A DNA stretch of 64,000 nt from a virus (taxonomy: Duplodnaviria > Caudoviricetes). A model generated the notes under the pieces. It did not search any database. It saw nothing but the letters and a program-made list of their open reading frames with translations, and was not told the origin of the DNA. Location: positions 96,001 to 160,000 of IMG/VR virus record IMGVR_UViG_3300032053_000004; one strand, 5' to 3'. Shown here piece by piece: positions 25,885 through 47,577 of this stretch (position 1 is its first letter; every line of letters begins with the position of its first letter). The translations under genes were made by a program, and so were the position numbers.

Positions 25885-27153
25885 ATGGCAATTTTTCTTG
25901 TCGGATCAACTTTAACTCGTGGAGATTTACAGATCAAACTCCACAACGATCTTGGTTATCTCCAAGATGGGATAGACGTACGTTGGTCAATAACTACATT
26001 TAATGGAGAACCCGTATCAGGTTCAAAACTTCCCGCCATAAAACAAGATACGGGAACTTATTATGCTCCATGGCAGTCTAACGTTAAAAACGGAAACTAT
26101 ATAATTAAATGGGAATATCAAGAAAATCATTGTGAATCTGTAAAATGTGCAGAGCAAAATTTCTTTATTGTTGATCCTTCAAGCTATAATTGTAATCCTT
26201 GTCGTGTTTGTGATACTGGTTTCCCAGAAAAAGGCGGGTATGCTTTCTTAACCGGTTCTCTTTTAGGAAGGAACGATCTTCCTCTTTATTTGAAAAACAG
26301 TGCCGGTTTACCTGCTGATGCTTTCATGGTTTTTTGGACCATTTTGAATGCAGCAGGTCGTCCTATCAACCCACGAACGATTGCTGATCGTGCGACAATA
26401 GGGGAATATTTTGCAAGTTGGTTTGTTGCTGTTCAAAGTGGGGATTATAGGATAAAGTGGGATTGGCAAGAAACTTCTGATTCTCCTCAAACTTCATCTT
26501 GTATTGATTTTTCTGTCATAAATCCGCCGCTTCCATACGCAGTTATGATTTTAGTACCATGCAATGTTATTACTCCTGATTGCGCTCTTAATCCGATAGT
26601 TGTTCCTGGCGTTCTTGTTGCGTGTTGTGATCAGGTCCGTGTTTGTCCAACACCGATGGCTCCTTGTCCTTGTCCTTCTCCAATTTTTGCAACGATTCCT
26701 ATTCCTATGCCAGGTCCTTCAAATTGTTGTGATTTTGAGATCCCGAGAGTTGTTCATCTCGCTTCTCAAGCTTTACCATCGGGCGGTGGATACACGAATC
26801 AACCATCGTACATAATCCCTTCTGGTGTTAGAAAAATTTGTTTTTATATCAATTATACACGTGGTGTTGTTGGCGGTTTTGCAACTTATAGAATCATGTG
26901 GGGGAATGGAACAGAAGAAACTCAAGAAACTTTGATTGATACCTTCGTAGTTGGAGATGATCAAAATGCTTCTCAAGCCATGTTCTTACAAGATCTAGAA
27001 GGTCCTATACCTCAGTCTAACTCTTCAGTTAATTTTATGATTGAAGTCAGCGTTCCCGGAGGACCTAAGACAGTAAGAGTTTTAGCAGCTGAAAAAGGAA
27101 AACCGGGATCACCGGGAACTACTGCAATAACTTTAACAGCCTCTTCGGATTAA
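25885..27153 (+). CDS. Structural protein with two tandem Ig-like domains and a Cys/Pro linker; possible collar/fibre adaptor
   Basis: Internal duplication GTYYAPW..GNYIIKWEYQE / GEYFASW..GDYRIKWDWQE; directly upstream of the collagen gene. Confidence 0.55.
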   Translation: MAIFLVGSTLTRGDLQIKLHNDLGYLQDGIDVRWSITTFNGEPVSGSKLPAIKQDTGTYYAPWQSNVKNGNYIIKWEYQENHCESVKCAEQNFFIVDPSSYNCNPCRVCDTGFPEKGGYAFLTGSLLGRNDLPLYLKNSAGLPADAFMVFWTILNAAGRPINPRTIADRATIGEYFASWFVAVQSGDYRIKWDWQETSDSPQTSSCIDFSVINPPLPYAVMILVPCNVITPDCALNPIVVPGVLVACCDQVRVCPTPMAPCPCPSPIFATIPIPMPGPSNCCDFEIPRVVHLASQALPSGGGYTNQPSYIIPSGVRKICFYINYTRGVVGGFATYRIMWGNGTEETQETLIDTFVVGDDQNASQAMFLQDLEGPIPQSNSSVNFMIEVSVPGGPKTVRVLAAEKGKPGSPGTTAITLTASSD

Positions 27154-30100: not shown

Positions 30101-33100
30101 CTACAGGAGCAGCAGGTCCAACAGGTCCAACAGGTTCCATCGGTCCTCAAGGAACTCAAGGAACTCAAGGTTCACTTGGCTCCCCAGGCCCAACGGGACC
30201 TCAAGGCTCCCCTGGACCGACAGGTCCCCAAGGTCTCACGGGTGTAACTGGTCCACAAGGCTCACCAGGTCCAACTGGTGCAGCAGGTTTTACTGGGGTT
30301 ACTGGACCTCAGGGTTCACCTGGTCCCACCGGTCCGGCAGGGCCTACTGGCGTTACGGGGCCTCAAGGTTCTCCTGGTCCGACTGGCCCACAGGGTTCTC
30401 CAGGAAGTCCTGGACCCACGGGAGCAGCAGGTCCAACCGGAGTTATTGGAGCCACTGGGCCTCAAGGTAGTCCTGGACTTACGGGACCGCAGGGCTCACC
30501 CGGTCTTACAGGTCCTCAAGGAAGTCCAGGCTCCCCAGGTCCAACGGGTCCTGCTGGATCTACTGGAGTAACGGGAGCAGCTGGCCCCGCAGGTGTCACT
30601 GGTGCAACTGGTCCTCAGGGTAGTCCAGGAAGTCCTGGGGCTACTGGACCTCAAGGATCACCTGGATCGCCAGGACCTACTGGACCTCAAGGCTCCCCAG
30701 GCTTGCCTGGCCCGACTGGACCTCAAGGCTCACCAGGCAGTCCGGGATCGCCTGGCCCTACGGGGCCACAAGGTAGTCCTGGTCCAACAGGACCACAAGG
30801 CTCACTTGGTTCTCCGGGCCCAACAGGTCCCCAGGGATCTCCTGGTAGTCCAGGTGTAACTGGAGTGGCCGGGCCTATTGGTGCAACTGGAGCTACTGGT
30901 CCTCAAGGCTCCCCCGGTCCTACTGGTCCTCTTGGATCTCCAGGTCCCATTGGACCTCAAGGGTCTCCTGGATCACCTGGCCCCACTGGTGCTGCGGGTC
31001 CACAAGGGTCTCCTGGAAGTCCAGGCCCCACTGGAGCAGCTGGCCCCACAGGTGTCACTGGTGCGACTGGGCCTCAAGGCTCACCTGGGCCACAAGGACC
31101 TCAGGGAACTCAAGGTAGCCCTGGTCCCACTGGGCCTCAGGGCTCACCAGGCTCGCCTGGTCCCACTGGAGCTATTGGAGCTATTGGAGCCACTGGTCCT
31201 CAAGGCTCCCCCGGTCCTACTGGTCCTCAGGGATCACCTGGCCCCACAGGCCCCTTAGGTAGCCCAGGAACACAGGGATCCCCAGGCTCGCCTGGTCCTA
31301 CTGGTCCACAGGGCTCTCCAGGACCTACTGGTCCACAGGGAAGTCCAGGTAGCCCTGGACCAACGGGTGCTGCTGGACTTACTGGTGTTACAGGCGCTAC
31401 TGGTCCACAGGGCTCTCCAGGACCTACTGGTCCACAAGGTTCACTAGGTAGTCCTGGTCCAACCGGTCCTCAGGGTAGTCCGGGATCAGCGGGGCCTCAG
31501 GGTTCGCCAGGACCAACCGGACCTCAAGGAGCAACTGGACCGCAAGGTTCAACAGGGCCACAAGGATCTCTTGGATCCCCAGGACCAACTGGGCCTCAGG
31601 GATCACCAGGACCAACTGGTATAGCTGGCCCCACTGGTGTCACAGGAGCAACTGGACCTCAAGGGTCACCTGGGTCCCCAGGTCCGACTGGTCCTCAGGG
31701 ATCACCTGGTAGCCCTGGACCAACCGGTCCGCAAGGTTCCCTTGGATCCCCTGGACCAACGGGAGCTGCTGGAGCCACAGGTGTCACTGGAGCCACTGGA
31801 CCTCAGGGTTCTCCGGGTCCAACCGGACCTCAAGGTTCTCCAGGTTCACTTGGCCCCACTGGGCCTCAGGGTAGCCTGGGTCCCACAGGGCCACAAGGTA
31901 GCCCTGGTTCTCCAGGTCCAACTGGCCCTCAAGGATCACCAGGAAGTCCTGGTCCTACAGGAGCAGCTGGCCCTACTGGTGTTACCGGTGCCACAGGCCC
32001 TCAAGGTAGTCCAGGATCTCCCGGCCCAACCGGAGCAGCAGGACCAACGGGGGTAACTGGAGCCACTGGACCTCAAGGTAGTCCAGGACCTACAGGTCCT
32101 CAGGGATCGCCGGGAGGACCAGGACCAACCGGACCTCAGGGTAGTCCGGGCAGTCCGGGTCCAACCGGTGCAGCAGGGCCCACAGGCGTTACAGGGGCTA
32201 CGGGCCCTCAGGGAAGTCCCGGTCCAGTTGGATCTCCTGGTTCACCTGGTTCACCTGGTCCAACTGGTCCTCAGGGTTCTCCTGGTAGTCCAGGTCCTAC
32301 CGGACCTCAGGGTTTACCTGGATCTCCTGGTCCAACTGGCCCCCAGGGATCTCCTGGTTCTCCTGGCCCAACTGGCCCCCAGGGTTCTCAGGGTTCACCT
32401 GGTCCTACCGGACCACAAGGATCACCTGGTCCAACTGGTCCAACTGGTCCACAAGGTTCTCCTGGATCCCCCGGCCCCACTGGACCTCAAGGATCTCCTG
32501 GATCCCCCGGCCCCACTGGAATCGATGGTCCTACTGGCCCTCAAGGTTCTCCAGGTCCAACTGGACCACAAGGGTCCCCAGGGTCCCCAGGTAGTCCTGG
32601 ATCGCCCGGTCCTACTGGACCTCTAGGTTTTCCTGGGAGTCCTGGGAGTCCTGGGAGTCCTGGTCCTACTGGACCGTTGGGGTCTCCAGGATCACCTGGC
32701 CCCACTGGACCTTTAGGACCTTTAGGAACACAAGGTTCACCAGGTAGTCCAGGCCCTACCGGTCCTGAAGCAACTCCATCGTCTCAGATCATTGAGGCCA
32801 CTGGAACTATCACAACCACATCGACTACTGACACGCTTGCTACGTCAATGACTGTAACACCAACCTCTGGTACATATCTCGTATGGTTTACAGGATCAGT
32901 TGATAATAGTACTACTAACAGCTCGATTTTTACATCAATTTATTCGAATGGCGCACAGGTAGCTTCTTCCGAAAGAAACTTTCGACGTGGTGGTTCTCAA
33001 GGAAACGTAGCTTCTGCATTTGATTGTGCAGCAAGAGTCACAGTTAATGGTTCTCAAGCAATTGAAGGTCGTTGGAGAGTTGATGCTGGAACCGGTAGCA

Positions 33101-33138
33101 TGTATCAACGAAGTCTTATGATTCTCAAGGTAGCCTAA
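27157..33138 (+). CDS. Giant collagen-like fibre protein
   Basis: Gly-X-Y tracts at 27178-28374 (133 triplets) and 28756-32769 (446 triplets), each followed by a ~120-aa beta-rich globular domain. Dominant triplets GPT, GPQ and GSP. Confidence 0.9.
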
Positions 33139-33139: not shown

Positions 33140-33976
33140 ATGCCTCTTAGTCAATATACATACACGATCGCGACTGATTTTCCAAACAATTTAGTCAACT
33201 CGGATCGACTCACTCTTGAAATTATAGCCACTGCGATAGTACCTGTCCTTGATCATATTGATACTGAGAATGGGTTTTGCGATATATTCTTCCAATCAGC
33301 TCTTTCTGTTGGAGAGCAAACTACGCTTGATGGTGTTGTCGCAGTACATTCTGGCGCTCAGTTTTCTGGTCAGGTTCTCTATGGACACACTGGTGCACCA
33401 ACATTTGCTGATGATTTCTCAGAAGAAAACACCACAGGGCAAATATGGGTTGATCAACCAGGCGGCAGAGCATTTGTTAATATTTCGCCAACGCCAATCG
33501 GATCAGCTATATGGTTGTCCATGGGGGGTGGTTCACCAGGCCCTACTGGTCCCATCGGTCCCCCCGGACCAACTGGACCTCAGGGACCAACAGGTACAAA
33601 TGGGCCTCAGGGCTCACCCGGGCCAACTGGACCTCAGGGACCAACTGGACCTCAGGGACCAACTGGACTAAATACGAGTGCTCATGAACAATTAAGACAA
33701 CTGATTCATTTTATTGATGATGGTCCCGGTTTTGGTTTTGCTTCCGGAGCTTATAGAGAAGTTTCTGGTGTTCCATTCCCAACAGCCATAACCTGGTATG
33801 AAAGTTCAAATAAGACTGCTAAAATAGTTGAAAAGTTAATTTCTCTTCCATTAATAGCCCCCACAGGCATAACATGGAATATGTATGGAGTTGGGGGAAC
33901 ACCGATAGTTCAAACAATTGGTGACAGAATTGTTTATACAGGGATTTTCGAAATTTCAAGGATTAGATCAATATGA
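33140..33976 (+). CDS. Short collagen-repeat structural protein
   Basis: Central GPT/GPQ tract of ~15 triplets flanked by globular domains. Confidence 0.75.
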
Positions 33977-33988: not shown

Positions 33989-35803
33989 TTGGTGATTACA
34001 ATGAGTGATACACCCGCTGTAATCATTTATAATTCAACTGGTACAGACGCGGCTGCGGTGAAGGCAGCGAGCACGGCGGCTGTTGCTGCCGATACAGCTC
34101 TGGTCGTTGCTATTAGTCCAAACTCCAACGATGTTGCTGTAGCCTATTACGATAATGGTCAAGGAGAGTCTGCAACTTGGGATAATACTACGAACCTCAG
34201 TGTTGATGTTGAGGCTATTCCACCCACTGTTGCTGGTAATGCCTGCACTGTCAGTATCTCACTGACACGTACCGGGACAATTACAGCAGGCGAGATTTCG
34301 TTTCAGGGTTCGGACGCAACTGGTGGTGTTTGGTTCCCGGTAAAAGCAACTCGTACCGAATCATTCACGACCGAGAACTCCATTCTGCTATCTGGCGTAG
34401 CAGACATTATGTGGAAGGTGAGTTGTGCCGGGTTCTTTGGCCTCCGGGCACAACTCACCACACAGATAACGGGTGCGGGCAGTGTGTTTATTACGACCCT
34501 ATGGGATACCTCCCCTGTAGGTGACACAAGATCCACTGTTGGTCAGAGTGATGAGACTAAGCTGAACGCCACGACCACTCTGAGGAGCGGACTCAAGGGC
34601 TCATCAGCAGCAGCTCTGGTGACTAGCTCTGCATCTGGGGCGAATCACCAGCCCCTCGATGTTGCGATCTACGACGCCACAGGCAATCAGATCACGAGCT
34701 TTGGCGGTGGAACCCAGTACACGGAGGATGTTGCTGCTCCAGCCGATCCTACTGGAACTTCCAAGGTACTGGTTCGTGCTGATACACCGGCAACGATCAC
34801 GGGAACTGATGGTGACTGGGTTTCTCAGAGAGGAACCAACTACGGTGCTGGGTATGTCCAGGTCGTTAACTCAACTGGGTCATTCGTAGACACGTTCGGT
34901 GGTGGTACGCAGTACGCGGACGGTGCTGCTCGTGGGACTGCTACCGGCACCTTGATGATGGTGGATGACGGCACGCTGGTTCAGTCGGCAAGTGGAGACT
35001 CTACAGGCAAGCTCAACGTCAATGCGATTCAGAGCACGGCTGCTGGTGCGGCGGCACCGTGGGCGACACGACTCAGTGATGGTGCCGCGTTCTACGATGC
35101 AGCCAAGACCGGGCAGCTCCCCGCTGCACTCGTAGGCGGTCGCCTAGACGAGAATGTCGGGGCCTGGCTCGGTTCTACGGCTCCCACGGTGGGGTCCAAG
35201 ACTTCAGCGAATTCTCTCCCGGTAGTTATCGCTTCTGATCAAGGTGCGGTTCCGGTCTCTGGAACTGTCACTGCCGGTCAGGGCACGGCTGCGGCTCTGG
35301 CAGGATACTGGCCGGTTCGTGTGACCGATGGCACCAACACGATGCCCACCCTGGACACGGTGGGTCGTCGTGGGTTCGTCACAATCACGGACGGCACGAA
35401 TTCGATGCCGACCGGTGATGCAATCGCCAGGGCGCTCTTCGTTCGTCAGACCGATGGGACGAACAACGCCACGATCAAGGCGGCTAGCGTCACAGCAGTA
35501 GCGGCAGACACCGGGATCGTAGTTGCACCCCGTGCGTCAGCAACCGGTACGCAGACAAGCGTTGCATCAAGCGCAACAAGCGCGCAGCTACTTGCGGCGA
35601 ATACAGCTCGCATGGGTGCGATCATCTTCAACGATTCGACGCAAGTATGCTTCGTGAAGTTCGGCACGACCGCATCAAGTACGAGCTTTGCTTATCGCCT
35701 CACGTCGAACTCGACGCTGGAGGTGCCCTATGGGTACACGGGTCGTATCGACGCGATCTGGGCATCTGCGAATGGTAACGCTCGAATCACCGAGATGACG
35801 TGA
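33989..35803 (+). CDS. Putative fibre/receptor-binding protein
   Basis: T/A/G-rich, with repeated GGGTQY and V.xTDGTN motifs; GC rises after ~34300. Confidence 0.6.
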   Translation: MVITMSDTPAVIIYNSTGTDAAAVKAASTAAVAADTALVVAISPNSNDVAVAYYDNGQGESATWDNTTNLSVDVEAIPPTVAGNACTVSISLTRTGTITAGEISFQGSDATGGVWFPVKATRTESFTTENSILLSGVADIMWKVSCAGFFGLRAQLTTQITGAGSVFITTLWDTSPVGDTRSTVGQSDETKLNATTTLRSGLKGSSAAALVTSSASGANHQPLDVAIYDATGNQITSFGGGTQYTEDVAAPADPTGTSKVLVRADTPATITGTDGDWVSQRGTNYGAGYVQVVNSTGSFVDTFGGGTQYADGAARGTATGTLMMVDDGTLVQSASGDSTGKLNVNAIQSTAAGAAAPWATRLSDGAAFYDAAKTGQLPAALVGGRLDENVGAWLGSTAPTVGSKTSANSLPVVIASDQGAVPVSGTVTAGQGTAAALAGYWPVRVTDGTNTMPTLDTVGRRGFVTITDGTNSMPTGDAIARALFVRQTDGTNNATIKAASVTAVAADTGIVVAPRASATGTQTSVASSATSAQLLAANTARMGAIIFNDSTQVCFVKFGTTASSTSFAYRLTSNSTLEVPYGYTGRIDAIWASANGNARITEMT

Positions 35804-36483
35804 TGCCCGTCTCAACTCCATCTCAGGCTATCATCAGCGAGACGTTCCTGGTCTCAGGCACGACCTTCACGACAGGTCCGACCACAACCCGAATCAAGGT
35901 CGAACAGGTCGGCGGTGGCGGTGGAGGTGGAGGTGGTGTCACTGGTGTGACGGCAACATCGGCGGCTCCCGGTGGTGGCGCTGGTGGCTACGCCATCAAG
36001 ATCTTCGATGTAACCCCCAACACGAACTACACCTACGCGATCGGTGCTGCCGGAACAGCGGCGACCGCCGGGAACAACGCTGGCGGAAATGGTGGCAACA
36101 CTACGTTTGCAGTGGGAGCCGTGACCGTTACTGCCAACGGTGGGACCGGCGGTGCTGGCGGCGGCGTCGCTGCCACAACTGTCCTGATCTTGGCCGGTGG
36201 TGCTGGTGCTACCGTTGGAACCAACGGTGACGTCAACGCTCCTGGTCAGGGCGGTGGGGCCTCGACTCGACTCTCGGCAACGATTGCAGCCAGCGGTAAC
36301 GGAGGAAGCGGACGGTTTGGGGCCGGGGCTCTAGGAACTGTTGCTCAGGGCGCAGGCACGGCCGGAACCGGTAACGGCTCGGGAGGCTCGGGTGGCCTTT
36401 CACTCAACGGCGGTGCCTCGGTTGCAGGTGGTGCCGGAACGGTGGGGGCGATCCTCGTGACCGAATACGAGGCCACGGCATGA
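35800..36483 (+). CDS. Glycine-rich fibre-associated protein
   Basis: VGGGGGGGGG...GGGAGGY polyglycine motifs; TGATG coupling. Confidence 0.7.
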   Translation: MMPVSTPSQAIISETFLVSGTTFTTGPTTTRIKVEQVGGGGGGGGGVTGVTATSAAPGGGAGGYAIKIFDVTPNTNYTYAIGAAGTAATAGNNAGGNGGNTTFAVGAVTVTANGGTGGAGGGVAATTVLILAGGAGATVGTNGDVNAPGQGGGASTRLSATIAASGNGGSGRFGAGALGTVAQGAGTAGTGNGSGGSGGLSLNGGASVAGGAGTVGAILVTEYEATA

Positions 36484-37160
36484 TCCAGCAGGCCAAGCTC
36501 GTTCTACTCAGCGAGACCTACCTGACGACGGGCACGACCCACACGGTCAGCAGCAATACGCACAGGATCTTCATCGAGCTGGTCGGCGGCGGTGGTGGTG
36601 GCGGTGGTGCCTCTGGAACTGGCTCTCAAGCCGGGGCGGGAGCCGGTGGTGGAGCCGGTGGATACGGCTGCAAGGTCTTCGACGTGGTGCCCAGCACCGG
36701 CTACACCTACGCGATTGGAGCGGCTGGAACGGCTGGAGCGGCAGCGGCCGGTACTGGAGGCAACGGAGGCGACACGACCTTCGCGGTGGGGGCCACGACC
36801 GTCACGGCCAAGGGAGGCACCGGAGGTGTCGGTATGGCGAACGGCACGACCTCGTTGATCACCAAGGGCGGGGCCGGGGGTGTCGTCGGCTCCAACGGTG
36901 ACGTGAACGCTTCAGGGGACAACGGCGGTGATGGGGTTCGGTTGTCTGGCTCGATTCGTCGGGCCGGTGAAGGTGGCAGCGGTCCTTTTGGTGCCGGGGG
37001 GCAGAACACGAACGTCAGTGGAAACGGTGGCGCAGGTTCGGCCGGAACTGGCAACGGCTCAGGCGGTTCCGGTGGCAGCAGCGGCAACGTCACGAATCGA
37101 GCCGGTGGTGTCGGCACGGTCGGCGCCATCCTTGTGCAAGAATACGGTTACGTCACGTAG
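36480..37160 (+). CDS. Glycine-rich fibre-associated protein, paralogue of 35800
   Basis: Colinear with the upstream gene (SETxL.xGTT...YTYAIGAAGTA...GAILVxEY). Confidence 0.7.
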   Translation: MIQQAKLVLLSETYLTTGTTHTVSSNTHRIFIELVGGGGGGGGASGTGSQAGAGAGGGAGGYGCKVFDVVPSTGYTYAIGAAGTAGAAAAGTGGNGGDTTFAVGATTVTAKGGTGGVGMANGTTSLITKGGAGGVVGSNGDVNASGDNGGDGVRLSGSIRRAGEGGSGPFGAGGQNTNVSGNGGAGSAGTGNGSGGSGGSSGNVTNRAGGVGTVGAILVQEYGYVT

Positions 37161-37168
37161 GAGAAGTC

Positions 37169-37546
37169 ATGCCTTTCATCATCACAGCCCCAGAGACCAA
37201 GACGATCACACAGAAGTACGTGATCACGAACCCAACCAACGACGACGTTGTAGAGGTGAGTGCCGTCCGGACCATCGACCGCGTGAACATCGAGCACATC
37301 ATCACCAGTATGCCGATCAACAACCCGACCGGCGTCTCCATGACAGTCAAGTGGAGTATCGGCTACATGGACGGAGTCGTATTCTTCCCGACCGAGCGGG
37401 GCAGTGCCGAGCTGGCCGGTGAAGCGTTGCTGACCAAGATGGTCGAGCCGGTGATTCCAGGGGCCACCCACTATGGTGATCACAAGGCTGCGCTATACGA
37501 GCTTCTCGTTGCATTGGGCCACATCCCGGCTGGATCAATCGTATGA
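37169..37546 (+). CDS. Hypothetical protein of the fibre module
   Basis: SD AGGAG; ATGA overlap with the patatin gene. Confidence 0.6.
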   Translation: MPFIITAPETKTITQKYVITNPTNDDVVEVSAVRTIDRVNIEHIITSMPINNPTGVSMTVKWSIGYMDGVVFFPTERGSAELAGEALLTKMVEPVIPGATHYGDHKAALYELLVALGHIPAGSIV

Positions 37547-38400
37547 GAGCGTTGGTTCTCAGCGGGGGCGGGAGCAAGGGCGCGTATCAGGTCGGCGCGC
37601 TGAAGCGGTGGGTGTTTGAGGAAGGAGCAGACTACGAGATTCTGACGGGTATTTCGGTAGGAGCCATCAACACCACCTACCTCAGCCAGTATCCTGTAGG
37701 ACAGGGCAAGCAAGGCTACCAAGCCCTCAAGGATCTGTGGGACACTGTGACTCCTCGCAAGGTTAAGAAGAACTGGTTCCCCTTCTGCCAACTCGAAGCT
37801 CTCTGGAAGCCCTCTGTGTACAACTCGGAGCCTCTCCAGAAGTGGGTTCGGGGTGGTCTTGACACCGAGAAGGTCTTGGCTTCCGGGAAACTCCTTCGGA
37901 TCGTAACGGTCTCGTGGGACACCGGGGAGGCCAGAGTTATCTCTCAGGATGACTCTCAGCTTGCCGATTGGGTCATCGCAAGTTCAGCTTTTCCTGTCAT
38001 GTTGAGCCCCATCCGTATAGACGGTCAGCTCTGGACGGACGGCGGCCTAAGAAGCGTCACTCCACTCGGGGAGGCCATCCGTGCTGGAGCAACCGAGATT
38101 GACGTGATCATGTGCTCGGACCCTTATGCCAAGAGTCCGTTTGCATCGAAAGGCAAGGGAGCTTTCCCCAGCCTCACCATGCGAGCCATCGACATAATGT
38201 CTGACGAGATCATGAGGGCGGACTTGAAAATCTGTGGTCTCAAGAACGACCTGGCCGAACTAGATTCCAAATACCGGAAAGTCCATATTCGTCGTCTTCT
38301 AAAACCCTCTGTTGATTTAGGGGACTCTTTGGATTTCGAACAAAAGAATATCATTAGAATGGAAAAAATCGGGTATGATGATGCATGTAATTTAATTTAA
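37543..38400 (+). CDS. Patatin-like phospholipase
   Basis: GGGSKG oxyanion loop, GISVG nucleophile elbow and DGG catalytic motif. Confidence 0.9.
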   Translation: MRALVLSGGGSKGAYQVGALKRWVFEEGADYEILTGISVGAINTTYLSQYPVGQGKQGYQALKDLWDTVTPRKVKKNWFPFCQLEALWKPSVYNSEPLQKWVRGGLDTEKVLASGKLLRIVTVSWDTGEARVISQDDSQLADWVIASSAFPVMLSPIRIDGQLWTDGGLRSVTPLGEAIRAGATEIDVIMCSDPYAKSPFASKGKGAFPSLTMRAIDIMSDEIMRADLKICGLKNDLAELDSKYRKVHIRRLLKPSVDLGDSLDFEQKNIIRMEKIGYDDACNLI

Positions 38401-38424: not shown

Positions 38425-40920
38425 GTGAAAGCCCCCATATCGGCCTGTCTTATAGTTAAAAATGAAATTGGACAAATCGAAAATTGTCTTAAGTCTATAC
38501 GTCCATATGTAGAAGAAATAGTAGTAGTAGATACTGGTTCCACTGATGGAACTCCGGAAATAGTTAAAAAATATGCTGATATATTTGAAGTTTTTACAGG
38601 ATGCAATGACTCAGAAGGACGGATTGAATCTTTTTCTTTAGCAAGACAAAGAAGTTTTGATTTAGCTACTAAACCTTGGCTTTTTTGGATAGATGGTGAT
38701 GATGAGGTTCAAGGGGCCGAATATTTACTTGAATTAACTACAAAATATGATAAACTGAGAAATGGATCACCTGTAATGGTGATCATACCATATGATTATT
38801 CATTTGATGAAAAAGGAAATGTCACATGTCTTCATTATAGAGAAAGATTAATCACTCCAAAAACTGCATGCCATTGGGTTAGTCCTATACATGAAATTTG
38901 TACACCAAATGGTCCTGGGACCGTCATGGTCCAGGATGAAAAAGTTCGCGTTGTACATAAACGACATCTTGTAAATAAACCATTTGAGCAAAATCGGAAT
39001 CTTCGTATCCTAAAATCTCATTATGAAAAGCATGGCGAATCTGATATTCGTCATCTATACTACCTTGGTCTCGAGTATGGAAACGTTGGTGATCTAGGAA
39101 ATGCTATAAAATTTCATAAACGGTATGTTGAACTTTCAGGCTGGGATGATGAGAGGTTCCTCGCTTGTTTGAAGGTATCTGAACATTATCAATCAATGGG
39201 TGATTATGATAGTTCTGTTGATTGGGCTTCAAAAGCTCTCATAGTTAGAGAGGGTTGGTGTGAAGCTTATTTCTCTTTAGGGAGAAGTTTTTATTTCATG
39301 GCCCAAAAGGGCGGAAAAGATTCATATAGAAATTGGGAAAGAAGTGTTCATTTCTTTTCATTAGGGCTTTCTTTACCACCGACCAAAACTATTCTTTTTG
39401 TTAATCCGACAGAAAGAAATTATGATGTTCATAGATATTATAATTTAGCTTTACATAATGTAGGTCAAACTGAAAAAGCTTTGGAAAGTGTAAATCAAGC
39501 ACTTCAAATGAGACCTGATGATGATGGTCTTATTGGAAATAAAAAAATTTATGAAAATGATTTAGCTCGCAAGACGATAGATAAAAATTTATCTATTCTT
39601 CATAATATGGGAGTATTGTCTACCGACCAAAATCAATTGATCATAGATGTTCTTTCAGGAAAATTAACTAAATTAACTAAATCGAATGTTGAAAATAAAC
39701 AAGAAATTAAATCGGAAATCACCTTAGAAATTAAAAAAGAGTCCACACTTGGAACCGAAGAAGTTATACGACCTCTTAATGACCTTAAATCAGTAATAAA
39801 TACGAAATACGAAATCGTGTTTTATGTCGGTCCAGGTCCCGAATCTTGGACCCCAAATACTGCTAATAAGATTGGGATTGGTGGGTCTGAAACTGCTGTA
39901 ATAGAAATGGGTCGAAGATTAGCTAAACTTGGTCATACTATTCGAGTTTATGGAGATTGTCCGAATTCTGAAGGTGTATATGATGGTGTTTCATATTTTG
40001 ATCACACAAAATATCAAAATCAATCATGTGATATACTAATAACATCAAGAAGGCCAAACGCTGTAGACGATACTAATAATGTTAAATCTAGAGTTACGTT
40101 TTGTTGGGTCCATGATGTTAGTTGTGGTGGGGCTCTTACTCATGCAAGGACTATTCGAACAGATAAGTTTTTGACTTTGAGTCAGTGGCATAAAAACAAC
40201 TTTTTAAGTTCTCATGTTTCTGTTCATCCCGACCAAGTTATTGTTACTAGAAATGGTATTGATTTGAATAAATTCAAAAAATCTGTTCAAAGAAATCCTC
40301 ATAAAGCTGTTTATAGCTCAAGTCCAGATCGTGGGATGGAAGTTGCGGTTCGTATTTGGCCGCGAGTACGGGAAAAAATACCTGACGCGGAACTTCATGT
40401 GTTTTATGGTTTTCAAACTTGGGAAGTCTCAGCTGTCAATGACCCGGGTCAAACTAATTTAATTAAACATTTGAAAAATGTTCTTAAGGAACATGAGGAA
40501 CACGGGGTTATTTTTCATGGGAGAGTTAACCAAGAGGAACTTGCGAATCACTTTTTATCGAGTGGTGTTTGGCCATATAGTACTTGGTTTACCGAGACAA
40601 GTTGTATAACCGCTATGGAAGCCCAAGCCGCTGGCCTTAGAATTGTCACTTCTCCTATTGCTGCTCTAAATGAAACCGTCGGGCCTCGAGGAGTCATGAT
40701 CCCTGGTGATTGGCTATCTCCTGATTATCAAAATAAATTTGTTGATGCTGTTGTAGAAGCGATGAATAAAACTGACGATTCTGATCGTGAAATTTTAAAG
40801 AAATATGCAGAAGAAAATTTTGGTTGGGACTCGTTAGCAAACGACTGGGAAAAGATGTTTGAATCAGTCATTGAAGAAGTCTCAACAAATATGATTCCTC
40901 CTTATAAGGGGTACTTGTGA
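38425..40920 (+). CDS. GT2-TPR-GT4 multidomain glycosyltransferase
   Basis: ISACLIVKNE..VVVDTGSTDGT..FWIDGDD (GT2), TPR-like helices (YYLGLEYGN, AYFSLG), then GGSE...SSPDRG...FTETSCITAMEAQAAG (GT-B). Confidence 0.85.
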   Translation: MKAPISACLIVKNEIGQIENCLKSIRPYVEEIVVVDTGSTDGTPEIVKKYADIFEVFTGCNDSEGRIESFSLARQRSFDLATKPWLFWIDGDDEVQGAEYLLELTTKYDKLRNGSPVMVIIPYDYSFDEKGNVTCLHYRERLITPKTACHWVSPIHEICTPNGPGTVMVQDEKVRVVHKRHLVNKPFEQNRNLRILKSHYEKHGESDIRHLYYLGLEYGNVGDLGNAIKFHKRYVELSGWDDERFLACLKVSEHYQSMGDYDSSVDWASKALIVREGWCEAYFSLGRSFYFMAQKGGKDSYRNWERSVHFFSLGLSLPPTKTILFVNPTERNYDVHRYYNLALHNVGQTEKALESVNQALQMRPDDDGLIGNKKIYENDLARKTIDKNLSILHNMGVLSTDQNQLIIDVLSGKLTKLTKSNVENKQEIKSEITLEIKKESTLGTEEVIRPLNDLKSVINTKYEIVFYVGPGPESWTPNTANKIGIGGSETAVIEMGRRLAKLGHTIRVYGDCPNSEGVYDGVSYFDHTKYQNQSCDILITSRRPNAVDDTNNVKSRVTFCWVHDVSCGGALTHARTIRTDKFLTLSQWHKNNFLSSHVSVHPDQVIVTRNGIDLNKFKKSVQRNPHKAVYSSSPDRGMEVAVRIWPRVREKIPDAELHVFYGFQTWEVSAVNDPGQTNLIKHLKNVLKEHEEHGVIFHGRVNQEELANHFLSSGVWPYSTWFTETSCITAMEAQAAGLRIVTSPIAALNETVGPRGVMIPGDWLSPDYQNKFVDAVVEAMNKTDDSDREILKKYAEENFGWDSLANDWEKMFESVIEEVSTNMIPPYKGYL

Positions 40921-41861
40921 GAGTCATTGTAACAGGTGGGGCTGGATTTATCGGTTCACATCTTTCTCTGAGTTTGTTAGAACTTGGACACGAAGTCATA
41001 TGCATTGATAACTTTTTTACATCTCGTAAAGAAACTATTTCTAATCTCACATCTTTCTCAAATTTTGAATTGATGAGACATGACGTTTGTGATCCATGGC
41101 ATATAGAAGCTGACCAAATATACCATTTAGCTTGTCCTGCGAGTCCAGTTCATTATCAAAAAAACCCGGTAAGAACTATTAAAACTGCTATGATCGGGAC
41201 TTTAAACGCTCTTGAATGCGCTCGCGATACTAATGCTCGCCTAGTTATCACATCGACTTCTGAAGTTTATGGGGATCCGATTATTCATCCTCAATCAGAA
41301 GACTATTTTGGAAATGTTAACCCAATTGGTGATAGAAGCTGTTATGATGAAGGGAAAAGAGTCGGAGAAAGTTTAGCTGTTTCTTGGTCAAAACAATACA
41401 AAACTGATGTTAGAATAGCTCGTCTTTTTAATACTTACGGGCCTCACATGGCGTTTAATGACGGTCGTTTAATCCCGAATTTTATCCTTCAAGCTATTGA
41501 AGGAAACCCTCTTACAGTTTATGGAGACGGATCTCAAACTAGAAGTTTTTGTTATGTATCGGACACAGTTCGTGGACTAATAAAATTAATGAACGTAGAC
41601 CAATCAGATAAAGTTCCTGTCATAAATATCGGGAACCCGGATGAAAGAACTATTCTTTCAGTTGCTAACGATATAATTAAATCAATAAACACTTCCCTGC
41701 GTACGGTTCATGAGCCTCTCCCGTCAGATGATCCTAAACAACGGTGTCCTGACATCACAAAAGCTAAACTTCTTCTTGATTGGGAACCTGTTGTTTCTTA
41801 TGAAGAAGGCATATCGAAAACTGTGAAGTGGTTTACTTCTGAATCTCGGAGTAGAAAATGA
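40917..41861 (+). CDS. UDP-glucuronate decarboxylase (UDP-xylose synthase, extended SDR)
   Basis: TGGAGFIG, YHLACPASPVHYQ.NP..TIKT, STSEVYG, RSCYDEGKR and QTRSFCYV. Confidence 0.9.
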   Translation: MRVIVTGGAGFIGSHLSLSLLELGHEVICIDNFFTSRKETISNLTSFSNFELMRHDVCDPWHIEADQIYHLACPASPVHYQKNPVRTIKTAMIGTLNALECARDTNARLVITSTSEVYGDPIIHPQSEDYFGNVNPIGDRSCYDEGKRVGESLAVSWSKQYKTDVRIARLFNTYGPHMAFNDGRLIPNFILQAIEGNPLTVYGDGSQTRSFCYVSDTVRGLIKLMNVDQSDKVPVINIGNPDERTILSVANDIIKSINTSLRTVHEPLPSDDPKQRCPDITKAKLLLDWEPVVSYEEGISKTVKWFTSESRSRK

Positions 41862-43135
41862 ATTGGGAATCTCGTAAAAATATCGGTCCTAATGGACCCT
41901 CAGAAACAGATTTTCCTGTTGCTGTAAATACCCCTCATTCTCAAGCTTGGGGCATACCTGAAGAATTTTTTATCGAAGAACTTCCTCTTCGAATGACTGA
42001 TAATCAATTACAATCCATGGTTCTTACCATTTGGAGAGAATTCATTCTTAATGATGAAGTTTTATCTGCAATTTCATTTCTTGAAAACGCACCATATAGA
42101 GTTCGCCATACTGAAGCAACCACTCGCGCCTTAAACATAACTAAAAAATCTATTGAGTGGATGTTTGATCATTCTAAAAGTCAAACTATAAATACTCCCC
42201 GTGATCCAAACGGGGTTCCATTCACAATAGAAGTTGGCAACATTCTTCCGGATCCTCTAACAGGACAACTTGAAGGAAGGTCTACTTGGATTACCAATAG
42301 ATTAACTCCTGGTTGCAGTCTTATAGATTTCGGTTGTATTGACGGATCTATGACAAACCGTTGGGGGATGTCAGGATTTAAAGTAACCGGTGTTGATCTG
42401 AGTATGAATTCAATATCTATAGCAAACAAGAAAGCTATTCAGTTTAATACTGGAGCTAAGCATATATGCTCTTATTTTAAGAACATTCCGAACCATATCA
42501 TACAAAATTCTTTTGATGTCGCTACCTGTAGTGATACATATGAACATCTTATCGACCCTATTGTTGATTTACTAGAACCGGCCAGAAAATGTCTTTCTGG
42601 CCATGGAAGAATGCTTTTAGTTACTCCTCATGGAGCCTGGTTTCGTGGTAAATTTCTTTCTTGGGCCCATCCTTGGTCTTGGTATAAGAGTGGTTCTTCC
42701 TGGTTAAAACCAGAACCAAGAGCTCATTTAGTAGCGCCAACTGTTTGGTCTGTTGCGGATCATTTTCGAAAATCTAAATGGTGGGTTAAATCCTCTGAGG
42801 TTGTTATACAGTCTTATGGGGACGTTCCTGGTCAAGGAAATGTGTGTGTGGAAGCTTTCGTTAACCCTCCACCTGTTTGGCCGGGTTTAGATATTGTAGT
42901 TTTGGGGTCTAATTTTGAATTGGCTGAATCTTTAGCTCTTCTCGGTAATAGAGTTCGCCATTTCGGACCTTGGGATGAAGAAAAGATATCGAATTTTGTT
43001 GATCATATATTTGACTCAAAACTATTTGATATCAAATGTGACGTTCTAATTTCTGATACGAACGTTGATTCTGTCGTTTCTAATAAAATTTATCCAAGCT
43101 CTGCTTCAGCTTCTGACGTTATCAATGGTGTCTAA
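41858..43135 (+). CDS. Class I SAM-dependent methyltransferase with a degenerate GT-like C-terminus
   Basis: LIDFGCIDG (motif I), TGVDLS, FDVATCSDTYEHL and GRMLLVTP. Confidence 0.8.
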   Translation: MNWESRKNIGPNGPSETDFPVAVNTPHSQAWGIPEEFFIEELPLRMTDNQLQSMVLTIWREFILNDEVLSAISFLENAPYRVRHTEATTRALNITKKSIEWMFDHSKSQTINTPRDPNGVPFTIEVGNILPDPLTGQLEGRSTWITNRLTPGCSLIDFGCIDGSMTNRWGMSGFKVTGVDLSMNSISIANKKAIQFNTGAKHICSYFKNIPNHIIQNSFDVATCSDTYEHLIDPIVDLLEPARKCLSGHGRMLLVTPHGAWFRGKFLSWAHPWSWYKSGSSWLKPEPRAHLVAPTVWSVADHFRKSKWWVKSSEVVIQSYGDVPGQGNVCVEAFVNPPPVWPGLDIVVLGSNFELAESLALLGNRVRHFGPWDEEKISNFVDHIFDSKLFDIKCDVLISDTNVDSVVSNKIYPSSASASDVINGV

Positions 43136-44283
43136 TGAGAATTGCTTTCTTAAATCATCCTATTGGGGTCAGAGACCCTGTTAATCCTGTTGATGTTTGG
43201 ACCTCTTCTAGAGGTTTAACAGGATCTGAGATTGCTTTTTTTAAATACGCAGAAGAACTAACCAAACTCGGTCATGACGTAAATTTATTTACCAAATTTA
43301 CTACTTCCGACCCGTTGGGTGGAAACGGACCTTATTGCATTCCTTATGATCAATGGGAAAGCATTTATTCTAAACAGAGTTGGGACGCAGCTTGTTGTTG
43401 GACGGTTGCGGACCCTCTTTCTTTAGTTGGTCCTGGAATATTTAGATTTTTGAATCATCAATGCAACGGATTTAGCGTCAGTCTTTCTGGTTGGGAAAAA
43501 TATGTTGATATAATAGCGCCTCTTTCTCATACTCACGCTAGAGCTTTATCTAAAGATACGTCATTTTCTAAGGATAAATGGAGAATTCTCTACAATGGCG
43601 TTGATTGTTCTAAATTTTATCCTGAAAATAAAGAGTCTGGAAAATTGATTTGGGCTTCCTCTTTAGATAGAGGACTTCATTGGTTATTAGAATCTTTTCC
43701 TTATATCAAAAGAAAAGCTCCTAACACGGAACTTCACGTCTTCTATGATTTCCATTCAATAGAACACGCGGCTGAGGTCTATTATCCTGGCGGGCAGCCG
43801 TATTTCACGAATGAACACTTTGAACTTGGGAACCGGGCTCGTTATATTTTGCGTGCTCTTCAAAAACTTGAAGGAAAAGGTGTTCATGTCCATAAATCAG
43901 TTAGTCGTTCCAGAATAGAACAAGAAATGAAAACTTCTTCTATCTTGGCCTATCCTTTAGATTCTATTTATTTTACTGAAACTTTCGGTGTCGTTGTTTT
44001 AGAAGCGTGTGCTTCAGGGACTATTCCCGTTCTATGTCTTGGCGATGCGTTCGGTGAGCTTTGGGGAGAAGTTGCTGAATCAGTTCCTCCCCCGTTTAAA
44101 GATCATAAAAATGAATATTTAGAAAAATTAATCAAATGTTTGACTGATGACGCATATAGGGACAATCTATCTAAAAAATGCGTTGATCATGCTAAGAAGT
44201 TTGAGTGGTCAGTTCTCGCTAAAGGATTGGAAAAGTGCCTCTTGACTAAGGGTCAAGAGGGCCTTCCTCTTGTTGATTGGTGA
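43135..44283 (+). CDS. Glycosyltransferase, GT4-like (GT-B)
   Basis: GLTGSE, SSLDRGL and ETFGVVVLEACASG. Confidence 0.85.
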   Translation: MRIAFLNHPIGVRDPVNPVDVWTSSRGLTGSEIAFFKYAEELTKLGHDVNLFTKFTTSDPLGGNGPYCIPYDQWESIYSKQSWDAACCWTVADPLSLVGPGIFRFLNHQCNGFSVSLSGWEKYVDIIAPLSHTHARALSKDTSFSKDKWRILYNGVDCSKFYPENKESGKLIWASSLDRGLHWLLESFPYIKRKAPNTELHVFYDFHSIEHAAEVYYPGGQPYFTNEHFELGNRARYILRALQKLEGKGVHVHKSVSRSRIEQEMKTSSILAYPLDSIYFTETFGVVVLEACASGTIPVLCLGDAFGELWGEVAESVPPPFKDHKNEYLEKLIKCLTDDAYRDNLSKKCVDHAKKFEWSVLAKGLEKCLLTKGQEGLPLVDW

Positions 44284-44287
44284 CATA

Positions 44288-45415
44288 ATGAATTTAAAAA
44301 TTGCTTTTATTTATGGAAACTGGTGTTTGGGGAATCGTCCCATTAATGTCAATGAATTATTTACATCTAAACGGGGTCTTACTGGCTCGGAACTTTCTTG
44401 TTTTATGTTTGCAAAAGAAATGGCTAAGAAAGGTCATAACACTTCATTATTCATAGGCGGCGGGTCAGGAGAATGGGAAGGAGTTAAAATTCGCGATATA
44501 TCGGAGATATCATCTATTGATCCAACTTGGGATGTCGCCTATTCTTGGAATGAACCAGATCTTCTTCGTCAAGTAAACGCTAATTTGCGGATGATGAATC
44601 AGCAACTTAATGATTTTGCTTATTGTCAACCTGGGTATGACGAATCTGTTGATGTTTATACAAGTCCTTCACAAACTCATATGGAGTTTCTTAAACCTCA
44701 AACACCGTCGCCCAATAAATGGGCAGTTATTCCTAACGGTTGTGATCCGAGTCAATACTCAGCCGGGAAAAAAGTTCCTGGAAGAGTTATTTATGCCTCC
44801 TCTCCTGACAGAGGACTTCATCTTTTGATGCAGGCTTGGCCTCGTATTAAGAAAAATGCTCCCCATGCTCATTTGAAAATATTTTATAACATGGATTACT
44901 GGTTGTCTGTTTTTGTTGGTCAAGAACACTCTATATACCCTGATTCAATGGAATATGGGTATAGAGCTAGGTATATAGATTTAGCTTTTAAAAGATTTGC
45001 TGATTTAGGCGTAGAAAGAGTTGGGTCAGTTAGTCGAGAAGAAATAGCTCAAGAAATGTCAGAAGCTGAAGTTCTGGCATACCCATGTGATACTGCCCGT
45101 TTTACAGAAGGATTTTCTGTAACAACGATGGAGGCTTGCGCTGCTGGAGCTGTTCCAGTCATTTCTTCCGTTGATGCTTTAGGTCAAATATATGGATCAT
45201 TTATACCAACTGTTGAAGCCCCGGTGAAGAATAGATTAAATGAATTTGCTGATATAATATCTCGTTCTCTTAATGATGAAAAATTCCGGAATAGTGTCAT
45301 ATTTAAAGCAAAAAGTCTTGCCCATAAACATAAATGGGAAAAACTTTCTTCTGATCTTGAGAGTTTGATTATGAATAAGTTAGAGTTAAAAAGATGTTCC
45401 CAGCCTCTCATTTAA
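44288..45415 (+). CDS. Glycosyltransferase, GT4-like (GT-B)
   Basis: GLTGSE, SSPDRGL and EGFSVTTMEACAAG; ATG 44288 preferred. Confidence 0.85.
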   Translation: MNLKIAFIYGNWCLGNRPINVNELFTSKRGLTGSELSCFMFAKEMAKKGHNTSLFIGGGSGEWEGVKIRDISEISSIDPTWDVAYSWNEPDLLRQVNANLRMMNQQLNDFAYCQPGYDESVDVYTSPSQTHMEFLKPQTPSPNKWAVIPNGCDPSQYSAGKKVPGRVIYASSPDRGLHLLMQAWPRIKKNAPHAHLKIFYNMDYWLSVFVGQEHSIYPDSMEYGYRARYIDLAFKRFADLGVERVGSVSREEIAQEMSEAEVLAYPCDTARFTEGFSVTTMEACAAGAVPVISSVDALGQIYGSFIPTVEAPVKNRLNEFADIISRSLNDEKFRNSVIFKAKSLAHKHKWEKLSSDLESLIMNKLELKRCSQPLI

Positions 45416-46932
45416 CCCGTCACGCCCGCTCTCAAATAGAAAAGATTCCGGTACTTCTTATAGTGCCGCCGTCTATTTTTTTACTTGATGAACGTGTATT
45501 CATATCTTTAGGAATTTTGAAAGTAGCCGCGAGTCTTGAAGCGGCCGGGCATTCTGTTGAAGTTTTAGATTTATCAGGGATTGATAATTTTGAAGAAGTT
45601 TCTGCGATTCAGGCTAAAAATTCTTCTTCAAACATAGCTTGTTTAACTATCACAACTCCTCAACTCCCTGCGGCCGTAAAAATAGTTAAGTCTATTCGCA
45701 ACGCTCGTCCTGACATGAAAATTGTGGCAGGTGGTCCACATGTTACTCTAGTTCATTCTGCAGTTAAACTTGAGAGAAAAGCCGGTCGAATCGGTCGAGC
45801 TCACCGAGCCTTAACGAAACTTGAAGAAATTTTCAATGTTCTTGTGAGTGGTGATGGTGAAAATTCTATTTTTCAAGCTATTAGTGAAAATGCTTCTAAA
45901 GTAATTGATGCTGATGACCCTAAAAACGGTCTGTTTATGACGAATGAAGTTTATGGATCTACTCCTTGGCCCGCTCGTCATTTGATTGATATAAAATCAT
46001 ATAAATACACAATTGAAGGTTTTCCAGCAACTAGTTTAATAGCTCAACTTGGGTGTCCGTTTGGTTGCACATTTTGCGGAGGAAGAAACAGTAATATGCT
46101 CCGGAGGATTCGTACGAGATCCACCGAAAGCATTGTTGGAGAAATTGAGCATCTTCATAAAAATTACGGCTATACTGGGTTTATGCTTTATGACGACGAA
46201 CTTAATGTATCAAAAACAATTATTGAGCTTATGAACTCTATTGCGGATTTACAAGAGAAACTTGGAGTTGAGTTTAGATTACGAGGTTTCATTAAGAGTC
46301 AGTTGTTTACTGACGAGCAGGCTCAAGCTATGCGAAGAGCTGGATTTCGGTGGCTTCTTTGCGGATTTGAAGCTGCTAATGATCGGATACTTGAAAATAT
46401 AAACAAACGAGCCGATTTAGCAGATAATAATCGAGTGATGGAGATCGCAGCTCGTCACGATCTTAAAGTAAAAGCTTTGATGAGTGTTGGTCACGCTGGA
46501 GAGTCAGAAAAATCCATAATGGACGTGCGAGATTGGCTGCTTCAAGTTCATCCCGCAGATTTTGATGTAACGACTATCACAACTTATCCAGGCACTCCGT
46601 ATTATGATGAAGCTTTAGAACATCCGGAGTTGCCTGATGTTTGGACATATACGGCCAAAAACGGAGATAAACTTCATAGTTATGATGTAGATTATACTGC
46701 TGTTGCTGATTATTATAAAGGAGACCCGAGTGGCGGATACCATTCATATGTATTTACAGATTATTTATCTGGAGACGAAATAGTAAAACTTCGAGATCAA
46801 GTTGAAAACGAAGTTCGAGAAAAACTGAATATTCCATTTAATCCTGGGGCTCCAGGGGTTAAATATGAACATTCAATGGGTCAAGGACCTCTTCCATCAA
46901 ATATTCTTAGACAATCTAAAATTAATAAATAA
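45394..46932 (+). CDS. Cobalamin-binding radical SAM protein (class B methyltransferase-like)
   Basis: N-terminal B12-binding Rossmann motifs (LGILKVAASLE, IVAGGPH) and the CxxxCxxC motif CPFGCTFC. Confidence 0.85.
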   Translation: MFPASHLTRHARSQIEKIPVLLIVPPSIFLLDERVFISLGILKVAASLEAAGHSVEVLDLSGIDNFEEVSAIQAKNSSSNIACLTITTPQLPAAVKIVKSIRNARPDMKIVAGGPHVTLVHSAVKLERKAGRIGRAHRALTKLEEIFNVLVSGDGENSIFQAISENASKVIDADDPKNGLFMTNEVYGSTPWPARHLIDIKSYKYTIEGFPATSLIAQLGCPFGCTFCGGRNSNMLRRIRTRSTESIVGEIEHLHKNYGYTGFMLYDDELNVSKTIIELMNSIADLQEKLGVEFRLRGFIKSQLFTDEQAQAMRRAGFRWLLCGFEAANDRILENINKRADLADNNRVMEIAARHDLKVKALMSVGHAGESEKSIMDVRDWLLQVHPADFDVTTITTYPGTPYYDEALEHPELPDVWTYTAKNGDKLHSYDVDYTAVADYYKGDPSGGYHSYVFTDYLSGDEIVKLRDQVENEVREKLNIPFNPGAPGVKYEHSMGQGPLPSNILRQSKINK

Positions 46933-47572: not shown

Positions 47573-47577
47573 AAATA

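Follow-up and report, generated by a model that had tools for sequence, protein, structure and literature searches.

The glycosyltransferase SgtA of Clostridioides difficile places beta-O-linked N-acetylglucosamine (beta-O-GlcNAc) on threonines in the GPT repeats of the neighbouring collagen-like protein BclA3 (PMC7157674), and GmaR, a glycosyltransferase with tetratricopeptide repeats (TPR), is the flagellin O-GlcNAc transferase of Listeria monocytogenes (PMC9638930). Among viruses, mycobacteriophages (Che8 and relatives) are reported to glycosylate virion proteins with their own glycosyltransferases (Freeman et al. 2023, as cited in PMC11256854 and PMC12582341). The multidomain protein A064R of chlorovirus PBCV-1 has two glycosyltransferase activities and a methyltransferase, and the capsid glycans of that virus, virus-encoded and host-independent, carry xylose and methylated sugars (PMC7019647). 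The locus described here combines a giant collagen-like fibre gene with a cluster of six glycosylation-type genes. It lies in a 64,000-nucleotide stretch of viral DNA (hereafter the window) that corresponds to positions 96001-160000 of the 202-kb IMG/VR virus record IMGVR_UViG_3300032053_000004, for which CheckV gives a completeness of 47%.

Window positions 27157-46932 are one optional cassette of about 20 kb, comprising the collagen fibre and the genes of six soluble enzymes. The reading favoured here with moderate confidence is that the cassette encodes a trimeric collagen-like virion fibre with a lectin-type head resembling tumour necrosis factor (TNF), together with cytoplasmic enzymes for O-glycosylation of the fibre. 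A literature search yielded no account of tailed phages with glycosylated collagen fibres.

The collagen fibre and the enzyme cluster

The central genes of the cassette are as follows.

27157..33138, + strand: giant collagen-like fibre protein, 1993 aa (Pfam Collagen 6e-261), with two collagen runs, a non-collagen domain at about residues 405-532 and a TNF-like head at 1866-1993
38425..40920, + strand: bifunctional glycosyltransferase, 831 aa (Pfam), with a family 2 domain (GT2, GT-A fold), a TPR region, a linker and a family 4 domain (GT4, GT-B fold); proposed to perform priming and first extension
40917..41861, + strand: UDP-glucuronate decarboxylase (UDP-xylose synthase, UXS), 314 aa, an extended short-chain dehydrogenase/reductase (SDR) matching human UXS1 at 1.1e-114 and 386 bits
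41858..43135, + strand: class I S-adenosylmethionine (SAM) methyltransferase, 425 aa, proposed sugar O-methylase (Pfam Methyltransf_23/11/12/25 at 150-275)
43135..44283, + strand: GT4 glycosyltransferase paralogue a (GT4a), 382 aa (Pfam Glycos_transf_1 4e-10)
44270..45415, + strand: GT4 glycosyltransferase paralogue b (GT4b), 381 aa, probable start ATG 44288 (Pfam Glycos_transf_1 5e-10)
45394..46932, + strand: B12-binding radical-SAM enzyme, 512 aa, class B type (Pfam B12-binding 5.9e-13, Radical_SAM 5.1e-22), with CPFGCTFC (CxxxCxxC) at residue 221

The 1993-aa protein holds 579 G-X-Y triplets, among them GSP (168), GPT (119) and GPQ (103); threonine occupies Y in 195/579 triplets and serine occupies X in 197/579. 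Its C-terminal 128 residues (1866-1993), modelled with AlphaFold2 (AF2) from 7 homologues, give a TNF-type jelly roll with a predicted local distance difference test (pLDDT) score of 91. The best folds retrieved by Foldseek are the trimeric lectins BC2L-C (N-terminal domain) and PLTL, at a template modelling (TM) score of 0.82, followed by BxpB/ExsFA, 4-1BBL and C1q. The fibre of Bacillus BclA ends in a TNF/C1q-type head, as does the phage collagen; BclA itself is not within the first 50 Foldseek matches, Pfam BclA_C is undetected by sequence in the 1993-aa protein, and a sequence search of the head against the Protein Data Bank (PDB) gave nothing useful. The modelled head indicates that the collagen is a genuine trimeric fibre with a possible glycan-binding tip. 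The head and the 128-residue non-collagen domain at about 405-532 both contain the motif SIFTSI, with no significant similarity between them otherwise.

The six enzyme genes, 38425-46932, abut or overlap on the + strand, with junction overlaps of 4, 4, 1, 14 and 22 nt. The 14-nt overlap is probably not real, GT4b more likely starting at the ATG given above. This layout agrees with a first-pass annotation of the same DNA, and Pfam bears out all of the domains assigned there (GT2-TPR-GT4, extended SDR, class I methyltransferase, two GT4 and B12 radical SAM).

The cassette as an optional block

Evidence for the cassette comes from the complete genome G012, in which the site is empty: the entire block 27157-46932 is missing and the flanking genes lie close together. 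Two border genes serve to define the block.

25885..27153, + strand: p422, the conserved left neighbour of the cassette, possibly a fibre anchor
46922-47725, - strand: ATP-dependent ligase / capping-enzyme-type nucleotidyltransferase at the right border, kept in 6 related loci and in G012

The G012 order runs from homologues of window genes 22970, 23583 and 25345 and of the N-terminal half of 25885-27153, through three small open reading frames (ORFs), to the ligase (46922-47725) and p299 (49838-50737). The spacing from p422 to p299 is 3 kb in G012 as against 21-24 kb in the genomes G006 and G011 and in the window. With the flanks joined and the spacing reduced in this way, block 27157-46932 behaves as one cassette.

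Homologues of p422 (40-53% identical) lie directly upstream of the collagen in the related locus L002 and in G006 and G011, and in cassette-free G012 the gene is cut to its N-terminal 232 aa. Since only the N-terminal part remains there, the C-terminal half may belong functionally to the fibre, for instance as an anchor. The two flanking genes p422 and p299 are paralogues (2e-08). The ligase gene converges on the radical-SAM gene, with an overlap of 11 nt.

Linkage of collagen and cluster in relatives

Synteny was counted over 80 IMG/VR loci carrying homologues of the 831-aa fusion enzyme, a collagen ORF being scored on the same strand and within 10 kb. At identities of at least 44%, such an ORF lies upstream in 23/28 loci, often 40-100 bp away, and downstream in 1/33. 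For three of the exceptions the same record contains collagen reading frames of 2063-3965 aa, 12-20 kb from the fusion. Two relatives chosen by identity show the order 422-aa protein, giant G-X-T collagen, small protein, GT fusion and sugar genes.

Joint presence was then assessed in near-complete genomes whose capsid protein is 74-94% identical to that of the window, with a collagen search at E <= 1e-5. The giant collagen and the GT2-TPR enzyme occur together in G006, G011 and G014, and neither occurs in G012, G013 or G018. G006 and G011 have the fusion with collagens of >1800 aa, and in G014 the GT2-TPR gene adjoins collagens of 1901 aa and 451 aa; the only collagen trace in the negative genomes is one stretch of 58 residues in G012. 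The G012 capsid is 90% identical to that of the window, as close as in the positive genomes, and G014 falls in the 75% group with the negative genomes. These capsid relations require at least two joint gain or loss events. The co-occurrence of cluster and collagen that the first-pass annotation had proposed as a check is thus found in the close loci, in the 3 vs 3 genome comparison and at the empty site of G012.

The GT2-TPR gene of G014 (IMG/VR 3300028840_002431; 412254-412862 and both contig ends) encodes 532 aa and has no GT4 domain, and the collagens of this genome run across the ends of the linear record. The gene is a possible unfused form of the system.

Several findings weigh against the collagen as acceptor. 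The co-occurrence table is small, with 3 vs 3 near-complete genomes that are related to each other, and joint presence in one cassette is linkage and no proof of an enzyme-substrate relation. Two short relatives (records of 38.9 and 44.9 kb) have the cluster and no collagen, and fusion homologues at 26-37% identity occur in small phages that lack collagen. In the window itself 5.3 kb separates the collagen from the cluster, and this interval holds five other genes of S/T-rich or structural type whose products could each be acceptors.

The last two of these points bear on an alternative in which the cluster glycosylates other virion proteins (the major capsid protein, a decoration protein, or the S/T-rich 604-aa or Gly_rich_2 fibre proteins described below) and the collagen is merely a neighbour in a structural cassette. 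The patatin and Gly-rich genes, and not the collagen, are immediately upstream of the cluster in the window, and capsid-protein glycosylation is reported for mycobacteriophages (Freeman 2023, as cited in PMC11256854). Furthermore, 6/8 of the distant loci tested, and likewise the complete podovirus MW202524 (42.6 kb), lack collagen and have a fusion homologue within one or two genes downstream of the major head protein gene. The distant loci support virion-protein glycosylation as the role of the family, with an acceptor that changes between lineages; the capsid proteins adjoining the distant homologues have no Ser/Thr-rich tails. Against this alternative, the 604-aa and Gly-rich genes differ in codon composition from the cluster and are missing from nearly all cluster-bearing relatives, the capsid gene is kept at 74-94% identity in genomes without the cluster, and the huge-phage clade keeps collagen as the upstream partner and loses it together with the cluster. 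Overall, another virion acceptor is considered possible but less likely than the collagen.

The occurrence of the cluster in relatives lacking collagen had been named in the first-pass annotation as evidence that would speak against a collagen acceptor. Such relatives exist among distant homologues, below about 40% identity, and the huge-phage clade retains the link. The enzyme family is therefore not collagen-specific, and the collagen link is limited to the huge-phage clade.

The lead glycosyltransferase

In the 831-aa fusion, Pfam recognises Glycos_transf_2 at 6-142 (2.4e-15), TPR at about 327-380 and Glyco_transf_4 / Glycos_transf_1 at 485-797. The AlphaFold model (22 homologues, pLDDT 86) consists of a GT-A domain (3-178), helical repeats (191-410), a disordered linker (415-459) and a GT-B domain (463-821). 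Signatures of GT-A enzymes are present, namely a nucleotide-binding D-x-G-S-x-D and a DxD metal site. Residues D36-D41 (VVDTGSTD), D90xD92D93 (DGDDE), H156E157 and E724-x7-E732 are invariant in the 22 homologues, which extend down to 48% identity.

The GT2 domain aligns over its full length with the glycosyltransferase domain of Listeria GmaR (1.8e-15, residues 5-197) and more weakly with SunS/ThuS (2.6e-08 for SunS). By Foldseek the GT2 and TPR half matches SunS/ThuS (TM by target 0.53-0.67, 3.6 A over 305 columns). The fusion as a whole also retrieves OGT and SPINDLY (SPY), protein glycosyltransferases that combine TPR with GT-B, as a composite match of low TM. Its GT-B domain matches PimA, MshA and GlgM (TM by target 0.62-0.71). 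Sequence and model together relate the GT2-TPR half to GmaR/SunS-type enzymes and support the view, already put forward in the first-pass annotation, that it is a protein-directed glycosyltransferase.

Two candidate identities of the TPR region, the peptide-binding domain of prolyl-4-hydroxylase (8/22 members, best 5e-5) and the leprecan TPRs (4/22), were weak Pfam hits below threshold and are taken as generic TPR similarity.

Homologues of the fusion number >1400; full-length identity is 47-77% among the best 120, which come from contigs as long as 445 kb. The family is near-exclusively viral, with 142 IMG/VR contigs as against 13 contigs of metagenome-assembled genomes (MAGs) among 185,579 species genomes. 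Neither Megablast with the cluster as query against GenBank phages nor a single-protein locus search gave a match, and an alignment-based search was needed to recover fusion relatives. Tblastn against cultured phages returned distant matches only, at <=32% identity, and the system appears not to be carried by any isolate among the cultured phages searched. Inteins, unusual in a glycosyltransferase gene, are present in 8/120 of the best fusion homologues (P0029, P0039, P0075, P0081, P0084, P0085, P0095 and P0099; 1160-1265 aa), with the intein/LAGLIDADG families PF14528, PF13403 and PF14890.

Accessory enzymes and the predicted site of glycosylation

The UXS protein matches human UXS1 (4gll, 2b69) far above the next family (125 bits), with GGAGFIGS, STSEVYG and YDEGK aligned, and its gene has no NCBIfam model above cut-off. 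This upholds the earlier assignment as a UDP-glucuronate decarboxylase that makes UDP-xylose. The description of the operon as self-contained does not stand: UDP-glucose 6-dehydrogenase was not found in the 202-kb record, so the supply of UDP-glucuronate has to depend on the host or on the unsequenced half of the genome.

All three GT-B domains match Pfam Glycos_transf_1 / Glyco_trans_1_4 and carry G(I/L)(G/T)GSE, SS(P/L)DRG and FTE(T/G)x6EA, the last being the GT4 E-x7-E motif; the shared motifs had been recognised in the first-pass annotation, which took them to indicate duplication within the phage. Identity is 35% between the two stand-alone GT4s (4e-74) and 25-27% between either of them and the C-terminal domain of the fusion (about 1e-25). 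When 72 GT-B domains are placed in one tree, the fusion domain and GT4a each form clades with support of 100/100, GT4a having orthologues in 7 other loci, and the three copies of the window each group with orthologues of other phage contigs. The paralogy therefore predates this phage, and a recent GT4 duplication within it is rejected on the strength of the tree.

Among relatives the accessory genes vary. Counted over non-redundant loci, 10 have a UXS-type gene, 11 a radical-SAM gene and 17 a methyltransferase gene, and others have C-methyltransferase, cupin or oxidoreductase genes instead. A stand-alone GT4 is present in 32/33 close loci and is the most widely kept cluster gene after the fusion enzyme; only the fusion and one GT4 are constant. 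Variable sugar genes around a constant core are as expected of an exposed glycan. In some relatives a homologue of the methyltransferase is inserted in the linker between TPR and GT-B, giving GT2-TPR-MT-GT4 proteins of 1100-1200 aa, which ties the methyltransferase to the same pathway as the fusion enzyme. For the B12 radical-SAM enzyme no characterised NCBIfam subfamily passed its cut-off, the best being BchE (104 bits, cut-off 481) and HpnJ (94 bits, cut-off 578); the nearest solved structures, 9ccb and AprD4 (6fd2), are matched at only 1e-11 to 3e-10.

A membrane-type hydrophobic segment is absent from all six proteins. The top 19-residue Kyte-Doolittle mean is 1.93, in the conserved GT-B core. 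The chemistry would therefore be cytoplasmic and not lipid-linked. Also, none of the six belongs to a flippase, bactoprenol-linked transferase or polymerase Pfam family. These negatives matter for the proposal that the enzymes alter a glycan of the host envelope (lipopolysaccharide, capsule or S-layer glycan) or synthesise a free methylated oligosaccharide, for example in blocking superinfection, and leave the virion unmodified. Polysaccharide loci typically contain GT2, GT4, UXS and methyltransferase genes, the GT-B domains are similar to PimA, MshA and a methylmannose-polysaccharide mannosyltransferase, and PHROGs places these families under morons and auxiliary genes. However, the six proteins include no initiating phosphoglycosyl transferase, and the lead domain is closest to protein or peptide glycosyltransferases. 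The genes sit inside a structural module and are gained or lost together with the fibre gene, and the fusion is nearly missing from cellular genomes. A host glycan as the target, or a free oligosaccharide as the product, is accordingly rated quite improbable.

Proposed mechanism

The following sequence of events is proposed for the O-glycosylation of the collagen fibre; which sugar comes first, in what order the transferases act and what the two methylase-type enzymes do are points that we infer from the homologies above. Late in infection, the GmaR/SunS-like inverting GT2 domain would put a first sugar on threonine and serine hydroxyls of the G-X-Y repeats, with the TPR domain placed to hold the polypeptide. 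The glycan would be extended by the flexibly tethered GT4 domain and by both stand-alone GT4 paralogues, which are of the retaining type. One donor would be UDP-xylose, which the phage UXS would form from UDP-glucuronate of the host. The class I methyltransferase would O-methylate a sugar, and the B12 radical-SAM enzyme would make a further modification, probably a C-methylation; it could possibly modify the collagen chain itself instead of a sugar. The glycosylated fibre would then trimerise and enter the virion.

Cues to the position of the fibre on the virion conflict. The Gly_rich_2 genes that follow the collagen look tail-fibre-like, and in the relative L003 a mere 8 kb or so separates the capsid gene from the GT fusion downstream of it, the collagen genes lying within this interval.

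Genes between the collagen and the cluster

The first-pass annotation had placed the cluster downstream of the collagen. This is correct, but the two are not directly adjacent, since the following genes separate them.

33140..33976, + strand: small collagen-containing protein, 278 aa (p278; Pfam Collagen 3.4e-07, residues 131-177)
33989..38400, + strand: block of five genes encoding a 604-aa S/T-rich protein, two Gly_rich_2 tail-fibre-like proteins, a 125-aa protein and a patatin-like phospholipase (Pfam Gly_rich_2, Patatin; PHROG 863, tail fibre)

Small collagen proteins immediately precede the GT fusion in relatives such as L003. Matches of p278 in other loci, considered as a possible shared globular domain, proved to be collagen-repeat matches. 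The G+C content at third codon positions (GC3) is 0.54-0.75 in the five-gene block and 0.22-0.28 in the collagen pair and the six enzyme genes. Except for the patatin, the genes of the block are missing from nearly all relatives. Because of this difference in GC3 and this absence elsewhere, the adjacency of collagen and GT genes seen in relatives is probably the older state. The GC3 of the capsid gene (9824-10708) is also 0.66, and the high GC3 of 33989-38400 could reflect recent import or expression-linked codon use.

The patatin-like phospholipase gene (37543-38400) recurs beside or inside the glycosylation cluster in 10 related loci. Its product has a weak match to the lipase family of the cyclic-oligonucleotide-based anti-phage signalling system (CBASS). 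The cassette-free genome G012 has a patatin homologue at another place, upstream of its counterpart of window gene 22970-23521.

Genome context

Structural genes upstream in the window include the following.

6029-7552: prohead protease
9824-10708: HK97-type capsid protein

The capsid protein is 74-94% identical in >525 IMG/VR contigs with sizes of up to 619 kb, which places the source phage in a large clade of huge, uncultured phages. DNA near-identical to the window occurs in 24 sediment metagenome runs; no RNA runs are listed among the sequencing runs that match the window DNA.

Window positions 19352-20782 encode a 476-aa protein with an HNH/homing-endonuclease-like N-terminal part and a Mom-family domain (Pfam Mom 2.5e-23, residues 303-450). 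A second relative of this protein adjoins p299 in G012. As a candidate DNA-modification gene, it favours an explanation in which the cluster glycosylates phage DNA, that is, a sugar-bearing hypermodified base such as the glucosyl-hydroxymethylcytosine of T4. Some phage DNA glucosyltransferases are GT-B enzymes. However, a thymidylate-synthase-type hydroxymethylase (PF00303) was not found in the 202-kb record (about 47% complete), and the same search was positive in 10/14 control genomes. The cluster is in the structural region and not in the nucleotide-metabolism region, and its lead enzyme is GmaR/SunS-like with a TPR domain. Neither xylose nor methylated sugars are known as DNA modifications. 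Glycosylation of the phage DNA is thus very improbable.

Significance

A glycosylated collagen fibre, if the favoured reading is true, would mean that huge phages are provided with sugar-coated collagen fibres by a portable, dedicated kit. Such a coat could stabilise the triple helix without proline hydroxylation, shield a very long exposed fibre from proteases, or change the sticking of virions to hosts, particles and sediments. The lead enzyme family (>1400 homologues) hardly occurs outside viruses and may therefore serve as a general marker for virion glycosylation in metagenomes. A wider picture can be offered tentatively, with a little less than even confidence: a clade of huge environmental phages would bear giant hydroxyproline-free collagen fibres with dense xylose and methyl-sugar O-glycans on threonine and serine, made by a virus-specific assembly line of GT2-TPR-(methyltransferase)-GT4 type, with a TNF-like lectin tip that binds host glycans, all encoded by a mobile 20-kb kit.

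According to papers that cite Freeman 2023 (PMC11256854), the only tailed phages for which virion glycosylation has been shown experimentally are a few mycobacteriophages. Spores and giant viruses are known to have collagen-like fibres that are glycosylated, and the phage system, if real, would join both themes. The present window adds a UXS/radical-SAM variant, the tree of paralogues, the lectin-like head, and the evidence from the empty site and from co-occurrence.

Comparison with known systems

The closest known system is SgtA/BclA3 (PMC7157674), in which a glycosyltransferase gene is likewise linked to a GPT-rich collagen-like protein. By analogy, the design proposed for the phage would be the same, with cytoplasmic O-linkage to threonine (serine is also accepted) and extension of the glycan by further enzymes. 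The phage system differs in being viral, in its 1993-aa collagen, and in a priming domain fused via TPRs to a GT4 domain. It also adds UXS, a methyltransferase, a B12 radical-SAM enzyme and two further GT4s.

GmaR (PDB 22ao; PMC9638930) resembles the phage fusion in having a homologous GT-A domain followed by TPR, and it acts in the cytoplasm on serine and threonine of a filament-forming protein; it has a C-terminal anti-repressor domain where the phage enzyme has its GT4 domain. SunS/ThuS (PDB 7msn, 7msp, 7msk), the best structural matches of the N-terminal half, share the GT-A domain with helical repeats and are peptide-directed. Unlike the fusion, they S-glycosylate cysteine of small peptides and have no second catalytic domain, and identity is 15-18%. 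Human UXS1 (PDB 4gll, 2b69) is a full-length match to the phage UXS with catalytic and cofactor motifs kept, the phage enzyme being without the membrane anchor. For the collagen head, the N-terminal domain of BC2L-C and PLTL (PDB 2wq4, 9ib7) are the best fold matches (TM about 0.8, rmsd 2.1-2.3 A, about 130 columns), at only 12-16% identity, and sugar binding is a candidate function of the modelled head.

Among viral systems, the reported acceptors in mycobacteriophages are capsid and tail proteins and not collagen fibres. Chlorovirus PBCV-1 is a eukaryotic virus with N-linked capsid glycans and unrelated domain families, and its likeness to the phage system is one of design and not of descent. 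The phage cassette is a variation on known virion glycosylation and on known collagen glycosylation.

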